Source: a virus (Duplodnaviria; Heunggongvirae; Uroviricota; Caudoviricetes). Taken from it: DNA of 19,373 nt. Below are positions 1 through 924 of the stretch, piece after piece. The notes below the pieces were generated by a model. The model saw only the letters and a program-made list of their open reading frames with translations. It was not told the DNA's origin and did not search any database. Where the stretch lies: IMG/VR virus record IMGVR_UViG_2617270959_000004, one strand, 5' to 3'. The position numbers were made by a program, and so were the translations under genes. Each line of letters opens with the position of its first letter. Position 1 is the first letter of the stretch.

Positions 1-2
1 CT

Positions 3-272
3 TCCATTTCCATCAGATGTCCTTCCTGCTCCGCTACTGAAGGCGTGGTGCGTAACGGCAAAAGCACTGCCGGACATCAGCGCTATCTCTGCTCTCATTG
101 CCGTAAAACATGGCAACTACAGTTCACTTACACCGCCTCTCAGCCCGGTAAGCACCAGAAAATCATTGATATGGCCATGAATGGCGTCGGATGTCGCGCC
201 AGTGCACGCATTATGGGCGTTGGCCTCAACACGGTTTTACGTCACTTAAAAAACTCAGGCCGCAGTCGGTAA
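3..272 (+). CDS. insA: IS1 transposase ORF A (InsA), 5' end outside window
   Basis: Frame is open from the window edge (...[40 protein letters not shown]...) and ends at TAA 270-272; matches remembered InsA. Confidence 0.85.
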
Positions 273-694
273 CCTCGCGCATACAACCGGGCAGTGATGT
301 GATTGTCTGCGCTGAAATGGACGAACAGTGGGGCTACGTCGGTGCTAAATCACGTCAGCGCTGGCTGTTTTACGCGTATGACAGGATACGGAGGACGGTT
401 GTGGCGCACGTCTTCGGTGAACGCACTCTGGCCACACTGGAGCGTCTTCTGAGCCTGCTGTCGGCCTTTGAGGTCGTGGTATAGATGACGGATGGCTGGC
501 CGCTGTATGAATCACGCCTGAAGGGAAAGCTGCACGTTATCAGCAAGCGTTACACTCAGCGCATTGAGCGACATAATCTGAATCTGAGACAACATCTGGC
601 AAGGCTGGGACGGAAGTTACTGTCGTTCTCAAAATCGGTGGAGTTGCATGACAAGGTCATCGGGCATTATCTGAACATAAAACACTATCAGTAA
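191..694 (+). pseudogene. insB: IS1 insB reading frame interrupted by an in-frame TAG (amber) at 482-484
   Basis: Two track ORFs (191-484 and 485-694) are in the same frame, separated only by TAG; 97+69 residues plus the stop equal the 167-codon InsB length; the stop sits where remembered InsB has ...[13 protein letters not shown]. Confidence 0.7.
248..254 (+). other. IS1 programmed -1 ribosomal frameshift motif (A6C) for the InsAB' fusion
   Basis: AAAAAAC lies near the end of insA in the insA/insB overlap, as in canonical IS1. Confidence 0.7.
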
Positions 695-709
695 GTTGGA
701 GTCATTACC

Positions 710-916
710 GTCATCGTCTATTCGTCCATGAGAAAGGCTGTCGTCCAGGTTCTGGAGACAATTCCGGATGTTCTTGAACGCGATTGCGCTCTGACTCCTC
801 AGGCCGTCGGCGTTGTACAGCAGGCCATTGATGACCTGCGATACACTCTTCAGGAAAAATCCTACGAGGCTTGTGCTGCTGAATTAATTCCTGATGAGGA
901 AGGAGAGAGTCTCTAG
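710..916 (+). pseudogene. 3' remnant of a phage gene truncated by the IS1 insertion; by position possibly terminase small subunit
   Basis: The frame is open straight across the IS1 junction at 709/710 with no upstream stop; the first ATG (728) has no Shine-Dalgarno; the ORF stops at TAG 914-916, 8 nt before the terminase large subunit start, with AGGAGG overlapping the stop. Function is inferred from position only. Confidence 0.4.
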
Positions 917-924
917 GAGGAATA

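Follow-up and report, generated by a model that had tools for sequence, protein, structure and literature searches.

A terminase small-subunit gene very probably truncated by an IS1F-type insertion sequence in a cdtI/mEp460-like lambdoid prophage of Escherichia coli

The closest described relatives of the prophage considered here include the lambdoid phages cdtI (AB285204 / NC_009514) and Tritos (OV696610). In both, the annotated small terminase gene occupies 197-721, at the beginning of the genome record, and is followed directly by terL. The small subunit (TerS) of cos-type terminases is needed for recognition of cos and for assembly of the holoenzyme. Classical polar insertions of IS1 are known from operons such as gal and lac. 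RNA polymerase that carries Q is unresponsive to pause and termination sites for tens of kb (PMC9388147). The IS1F copy of E. coli K-12 is natively near-immobile, and is readily moved once InsAB' is supplied in excess in trans, as reported in a 2025 study (PMC12903888).

We analysed a stretch of 19,373 bp (the window), which is the entire draft contig JNQC01000044.1 of E. coli assembly GCA_000704265.1. The contig starts 59 nt inside an IS1 element and ends inside lom, both of which are repeats, and the source record gives no sequence to the left of its start. Repeats such as IS1 and lom are typical break points of short-read draft assemblies. The late region of the window is 95-98% identical to that of the viable lambdoid phages cdtI, Tritos, mEp460 and PhiR47_1. 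We consider it very likely that an IS1F-type IS1, moved in trans, truncates the terS gene of a cdtI/mEp460-like lambdoid prophage at this locus, with TerS lost and the genes from terL to J left intact. The features of the window are as follows.

1-709, plus strand: IS1F-type IS1, nt 60-768 of the 768-bp element; the left 59 nt and left inverted repeat are lost at the contig start
3-272, plus strand: insA, codons 1-2 cut off by the contig start
191-694, plus strand: insB' frame, broken by an in-frame TAG at 482-484 into ORFs 191-484 and 485-694 of one frame
248-254, plus strand: A6C (AAAAAAC) programmed -1 frameshift motif of IS1, read from the letters
687-709, plus strand: right terminal inverted repeat of IS1, 23 nt, ATCAGTAAGTTGGAGTCATTACC
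710-916, plus strand: 3' fragment of terS (DUF1441), codons 108-175 and stop, 100% identical to 6001-6207 of the IS-free locus L001
710-718, plus strand: presumed 9-bp target, GTCATCGTC, the first phage nucleotides after the IS and nt 322-330 of the intact gene
728-916, plus strand: residual 62-aa ORF from Met114, with an in-frame ATG and without a Shine-Dalgarno sequence
925-3024, plus strand: intact gene for the terminase large subunit (gpA type), 699 aa, with Shine-Dalgarno AGGAGG at 917-922 and ATG at 925
3021-18754, plus strand: sixteen further intact late genes (head-tail joining, portal, protease/capsid fusion, decoration, tail Z-U-V-G-T-H-M-L-K-I-J)
3233-4741, plus strand: portal gene, its end overlapped over 56 nt by the protease/capsid ORF, as annotated in relatives
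15359-18754, plus strand: tail-tip gene J, open
18822-19373, plus strand: lom (Ail/Lom), cut off at the contig end

The truncated gene and the late genes that follow it

The phage DNA is 100% identical to IS-free prophages from exactly position 710 (position 6001 of L001). We found window 710-1400 at 100% identity in 766 complete E. coli genomes, 745 of which cover at least 80% of the query, with up to three copies of the sequence per complete genome. In the IS-free genomes, 710-916 forms the last 207 nt of a 528-nt gene labelled 'DUF1441 family protein', which stops 8 nt ahead of terL; the intact 175-codon gene lies at 5680-6207 of L001. The window gene is broken after nt 321 (codon 107), at the exact terminus of the IS.

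A reading of this DNA made from the letters alone (the sequence-only reading) had held that a phage gene, most likely that of the terminase small subunit, appears to be split here, that the phage frame is open across the junction from 710 to 916, and that it has no start or Shine-Dalgarno sequence of its own. The frame is indeed open, and is so already from 695. The absence of a Shine-Dalgarno sequence was borne out; that of a start was not, as an in-frame ATG is present at 728. Gene callers annotate 728-916 as a 62-aa 'DUF1441' ORF, and the same product occurs on 82 contigs of the protein collection. This ATG and the gene-finder call could be taken to mean that 728-916 is a complete, independent small gene and that nothing has been truncated. 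We give this next to no credence, as the ATG lacks a Shine-Dalgarno sequence, the same DNA is the 3' third of a 175-codon ORF in about 745 complete genomes and in cdtI and Tritos, and the Pfam and PHROG matches are limited to the C-terminal third of the profiles. The IS-free relatives were checked for a complete small gene at 710-916 and carry one continuous, uninterrupted 175-codon ORF; 728-916 was thus rejected as a standalone gene.

The identification of the split gene as the terminase small subunit held up against profile matches, the annotation of cdtI and Tritos and the adjacency to terL. The fragment scores 42.8 bits against PF07278 (DUF1441; cut-off 35.1), over profile positions 97-144 of 147. 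Aligned to terminase small subunits, 710-916 matches the C-terminal part of phrog_141 'terminase small subunit' (1.5e-22, positions 112-177 of 183). The intact protein spans both profiles nearly end to end (PF07278 positions 3-144), and the isolated phages cdtI, Tritos and HannyBb encode this 175-aa protein at 100% identity. The remnant stops at 914-916, ahead of the terL ATG, and the cos site itself lies outside the window. DUF1441 is listed by Pfam as a domain of unknown function, and the role in packaging that we assign to it follows PHROG and GenBank annotation together with synteny. A search of the sequences of solved structures with full-length TerS returned no significant relative. A full TerS of about 175 aa is not encoded in the window, which retains codons 108-175 only. 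Judged by its sequence, the window terS is a gene remnant and not a functional member of its family.

The genes downstream are well preserved. TerL is full-length with both of its domains (GpA_ATPase PF05876, 3.6e-81; GpA_nuclease PF20454, 2.3e-86), and shows no amino-acid differences from its counterpart in an IS-free relative. The 18,664 nt of window 710-19373 align to the closest IS-free prophage (L014) without indels, and 16 substitutions separate the two. No internal stop occurs in any of the 17 genes from terL to J, and their products differ by five amino acids, all in H and J, in agreement with the earlier statement that the structural genes are intact. The closest IS-free prophage is that of E. 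coli 300033 (NZ_CM128588.1), at the Qin locus in ydfJ. It has the same late genes as the window and, unlike the window, an intact terS and no IS1.

Within J, a stretch of 540 nt (window 16150-16690) contains eleven of the 16 substitutions and three of the four amino-acid changes in this gene. The cluster has the appearance of a short recombined patch or of variation in receptor binding. One 675-aa ORF at 4686-6713 joins a ClpP-like prohead protease to the major capsid protein, an arrangement typical of this phage group. An Rfam scan of the window gave no match, and a repeat scan of window 1-1300 gave nothing meaningful.

The IS1F copy and its transposase

Window 1-709 is 100% identical over 709 nt to IS1 copies in many complete E. 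coli genomes, where RefSeq labels the matching copies 'IS1-like element IS1F family transposase'. Alignment to the full copies in L012 (242-1009) and L016 (544-1311) places the window sequence at IS1 nt 60-768. The left inverted repeat, which falls outside the contig, is present in both of these full copies. The terminal repeat, insA and insB', the A6C motif and an IS1-type DDE domain assign the element to the IS1 family, IS1F subtype. The end of IS1 at 709, proposed in the sequence-only reading, coincides with the end of the right inverted repeat, and phage homology begins at the next base.

InsA is recognizable by matches to the Pfam domains HTH_Tnp_IS1 (1e-29 range) and Zn_ribbon_InsA on 45-269, and is present at full length in L016 (599-874). 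The insB stop at 482-484 changes a tryptophan codon to a stop codon (TGG to TAG), so that no full-length InsAB' is expected from this copy. Positions 1-61 and 63-131 of the DDE_Tnp_IS1 profile are divided between the two insB' pieces. RefSeq tags identical IS1F copies as pseudogenes ('programmed frameshift; internal stop'). The window copy is thus a transposase pseudogene, and we predict it to be non-autonomous.

Copies of IS1F with an internal stop like that of the window are found widely, K-12 IS1F being one of them. The window copy shows no differences from the L012 copy, and one difference each from K-12 IS1F and from the L016 copy (at window position 97); at IS nt 156 the window copy has A and the L016 copy has C. 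As the transposase is broken by the insB stop, yet the element reached terS, IS1F was presumably moved in trans by InsAB' from other IS1 copies.

Origin of the junction

We attribute the junction to transposition because the break falls at the exact IS terminus. An exact pattern search for the right junction (IS1F to terS) found it in none of 5426 complete E. coli genomes, nor in GTDB representative genomes or JGI metagenome contigs. It is present in one further contig in IMG/VR, UViG_2619619126_000006 (L016). L016 differs from the window at two of 3442 aligned positions and its contig ends lie elsewhere, which identify it as a separate, closely related assembly. As the exact-terminus junction occurs in two assemblies, we infer that a real transposition into terS took place.

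The joint could alternatively be an assembly chimera, with terS of the prophage in reality intact. It sits at the end of a draft contig flanked by repeats (IS1 on the left, lom on the right) and is found in no complete genome, as such an artefact might be. However, the break coincides with the final base of the IS1 inverted repeat, a signature of transposition, the 709 nt of IS1 are continuous with phage DNA in the contig, and the identical joint recurs in the second assembly with other contig boundaries and two SNPs. We therefore regard a chimera as highly improbable.

The reciprocal side of the insertion was sought in several collections. The predicted left junction, which joins the 5' half of terS to the left end of IS1, was not found in GTDB representatives or JGI metagenome contigs, and a shorter left-junction pattern (the 9-nt target and the IS1F left end) was absent from IMG/VR. 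We also looked up 21 predicted products of the terS 5' half exactly, comprising IS1F fusions with a target duplication of 0 or 7-14 bp, a form with the IS end inverted, and partial products. In a collection of 15 billion proteins, none of the terS-5'::IS1F fusion ORFs was found with IS1F-derived residues. 'Partial' N-terminal TerS fragments, which are not encoded in the window, were present with lengths of 110, 107 and 108 aa on 14, 4 and 3 contigs, respectively (P0016, P0031 and P0032). All three are contig-end fragments. The 110-aa one stops at nt 330, exactly where the predicted 9-bp duplication would end. It is consistent with the reciprocal junction and is not specific to IS1F, because an IS911-like insertion ending in TGA would yield the same product.

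The layout of the sister contig bears on how the joint arose. L016 consists of a truncated virK (virK', 1-543), a full IS1F (544-1311) and then the 3' part of terS, so that its left IS1F end adjoins a virK pseudogene and not the terS 5' half. The flanks of this IS1F are ...CGATTTTTG on the left and GTCATCGTC on the right, without a target duplication, in what is a draft contig. The virK'-IS1F joint is conserved in 46 complete genomes, where it lies in an island of the nanC/gntP region.

virK-island IS1F: flank sequence on the island side TCCTCCCGAACTC...

In the nearest IS-free relatives the prophage lies at ydfJ, in another region of the chromosome than the virK island; we take the two loci to be far apart from the gene order of K-12. 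A simple insertion of IS1F into terS is unproven, as the left IS1F end in L016 abuts virK' rather than the terS 5' half. One possibility is that there are two copies of IS1F, in virK and in terS, and that the assembler threaded a single path through the repeat. Another is that an IS1F-mediated inversion, or recombination between two IS1F copies, truly joined virK'-IS1F to the terS 3' part. The local junction sequence cannot distinguish simple insertion from duplicative inversion; only long-range linkage can.

On the rearrangement reading, the element beside terS would be the resident IS1F of the virK island, or a recombinant with it, brought to the terS 3' part by duplicative inversion or homologous recombination. 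Such an event would leave the prophage in separate pieces, and cos, the terS 5' part and the lysis and regulatory genes would be found elsewhere in the chromosome. L016 reads from virK' through IS1F into terS without a target duplication, its virK'-IS1F joint is identical to the conserved chromosomal joint of the 46 complete genomes, and both contigs, read from terS, extend far into IS1F or beyond it, which would be unusual for a collapsed multi-copy repeat. On the other hand, L016 is a draft contig of the short-read type, in which a repeat-driven join could occur, an inversion would still need two copies of IS1F, and the window contig ends 59 nt short of the left IS end rather than running into virK. 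On balance we consider the rearrangement a serious candidate but an unlikely one. If the virK-IS1F-terS linkage is real, it would serve as a marker of IS1F-mediated chromosomal rearrangement in this lineage. A deletion extending from the virK-island IS1F into terS was also considered and judged unlikely, since the loci are placed in different chromosome regions by K-12 gene order.

Gene callers report the 62-aa remnant ORF in many further E. coli genomes, in which terS was broken independently near nt 294-330. The breaks are listed by locus; IS1F in the window adds one at nt 322.

L004, L006, L010 and L011: 1-nt deletion in an A-run near nt 294-297
L007 and L009: point mutations
L008: IS629-like end at nt ~306-310
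L002: IS911-like end at nt 327
L005: IS66 family end at nt 327/328

An IS hot spot at terS nt 306-330, where four IS families appear to cluster, was rejected on the basis of counts in complete genomes: breaks number 15 of 757 in the 'hot' 120-nt segment versus 14 of 768 in a control segment. The apparent clustering is largely a matter of ascertainment, because any break between codons ~77 and 113 gives the same 62-aa call. In two K-12-like Qin remnants the 62-aa ORF is followed by a truncated terL (L002, 10198-12893) or by a terL fused to a tail-fibre 'Collar' domain (L008, 6567-9041). Their sequences indicate a large internal deletion of head and tail genes, and we read them as a further stage in the decay of the same prophage.

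We also weighed whether the 62-aa C-terminal fragment, presumed to be the TerL-binding end of TerS, has been kept and is expressed as a decoy that interferes with terminase assembly in superinfecting cdtI/mEp460-like phages. Such a role would explain the survival of this ORF beside an intact terL in many E. coli genomes after independent breaks by IS1F, IS629-like, IS911-like and IS66-family elements, frameshifts and point mutations. We regard the decoy as a long shot.

Consequences for packaging, and comparison with known systems

With IS1F at the break in terS, only the C-terminal 68 codons of the gene remain beside terL, and no functional, one-piece TerS would be made. The prophage would then fail to recognize cos and to package itself, except where TerS comes from a related prophage in the same cell. 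We therefore expect the packaging failure to follow from the want of an intact TerS gene, and the defect probably results from this loss and not from polarity. A simple insertion would add 777 bp, and take a genome of 46-47 kb to approximately 47-48 kb, which by analogy with lambda would probably still fit the capsid.

The sequence-only reading also proposed that IS1, at the head of the late operon, may block late expression. What terS heads is the packaging and morphogenesis block and not the late transcript: relatives free of the IS have the Q gene and the lysis cassette ~4.5-8 kb ahead of this gene, with the late promoter region upstream of the lysis cassette. A simple scan of the plus strand of the IS1 part found no site resembling an intrinsic terminator. 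A polar block appears doubtful, given Q-antiterminated transcription, the lack of a terminator-like site and the Shine-Dalgarno sequence that terL has of its own. After induction, terL and the head and tail genes would probably still be transcribed, since terminators do not stop Q-modified polymerase and terL brings a ribosome-binding site of its own.

The kind of feature described here is already known: a familiar insertion sequence contributes to ordinary prophage decay, here observed where a draft contig ends, and the finding carries little weight beyond annotation. It marks the prophage as one that probably cannot package its DNA although its structural module is in pristine condition, and provides a case in which IS1F, in a non-autonomous form, has transposed in natural isolates. 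Caution is also called for, in that assessments of prophage completeness on draft contigs can overlook genes split by an IS at contig ends.

The window copy is identical at 708 of 709 nt to K-12 IS1F (yjhU locus, type 4 IS1), with which it shares the A6C motif and the internal stop in insB. The K-12 element is found at another genomic location. Full identity with the window copy, including the A at IS nt 156, is seen in the IS1F copies of strains LAU-OXA and E110019.

As in the polar insertions of gal and lac, IS1 here lies in a gene that opens a long co-transcribed block. Unlike gal and lac, the block in the window is transcribed under Q antitermination, and the termination on which polarity depends should thereby be overcome. 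The phages cdtI and Tritos are 96-98% identical to the window over 95-96% of positions 710-19373, their small terminase matches the 68 residues that the window retains at 100% identity, and the order of genes from terS through terL and portal onward is the same in them as in the phage type of the window. In cdtI and Tritos terS is uninterrupted, whereas the window keeps codons 108-175 only, with IS1F in front.
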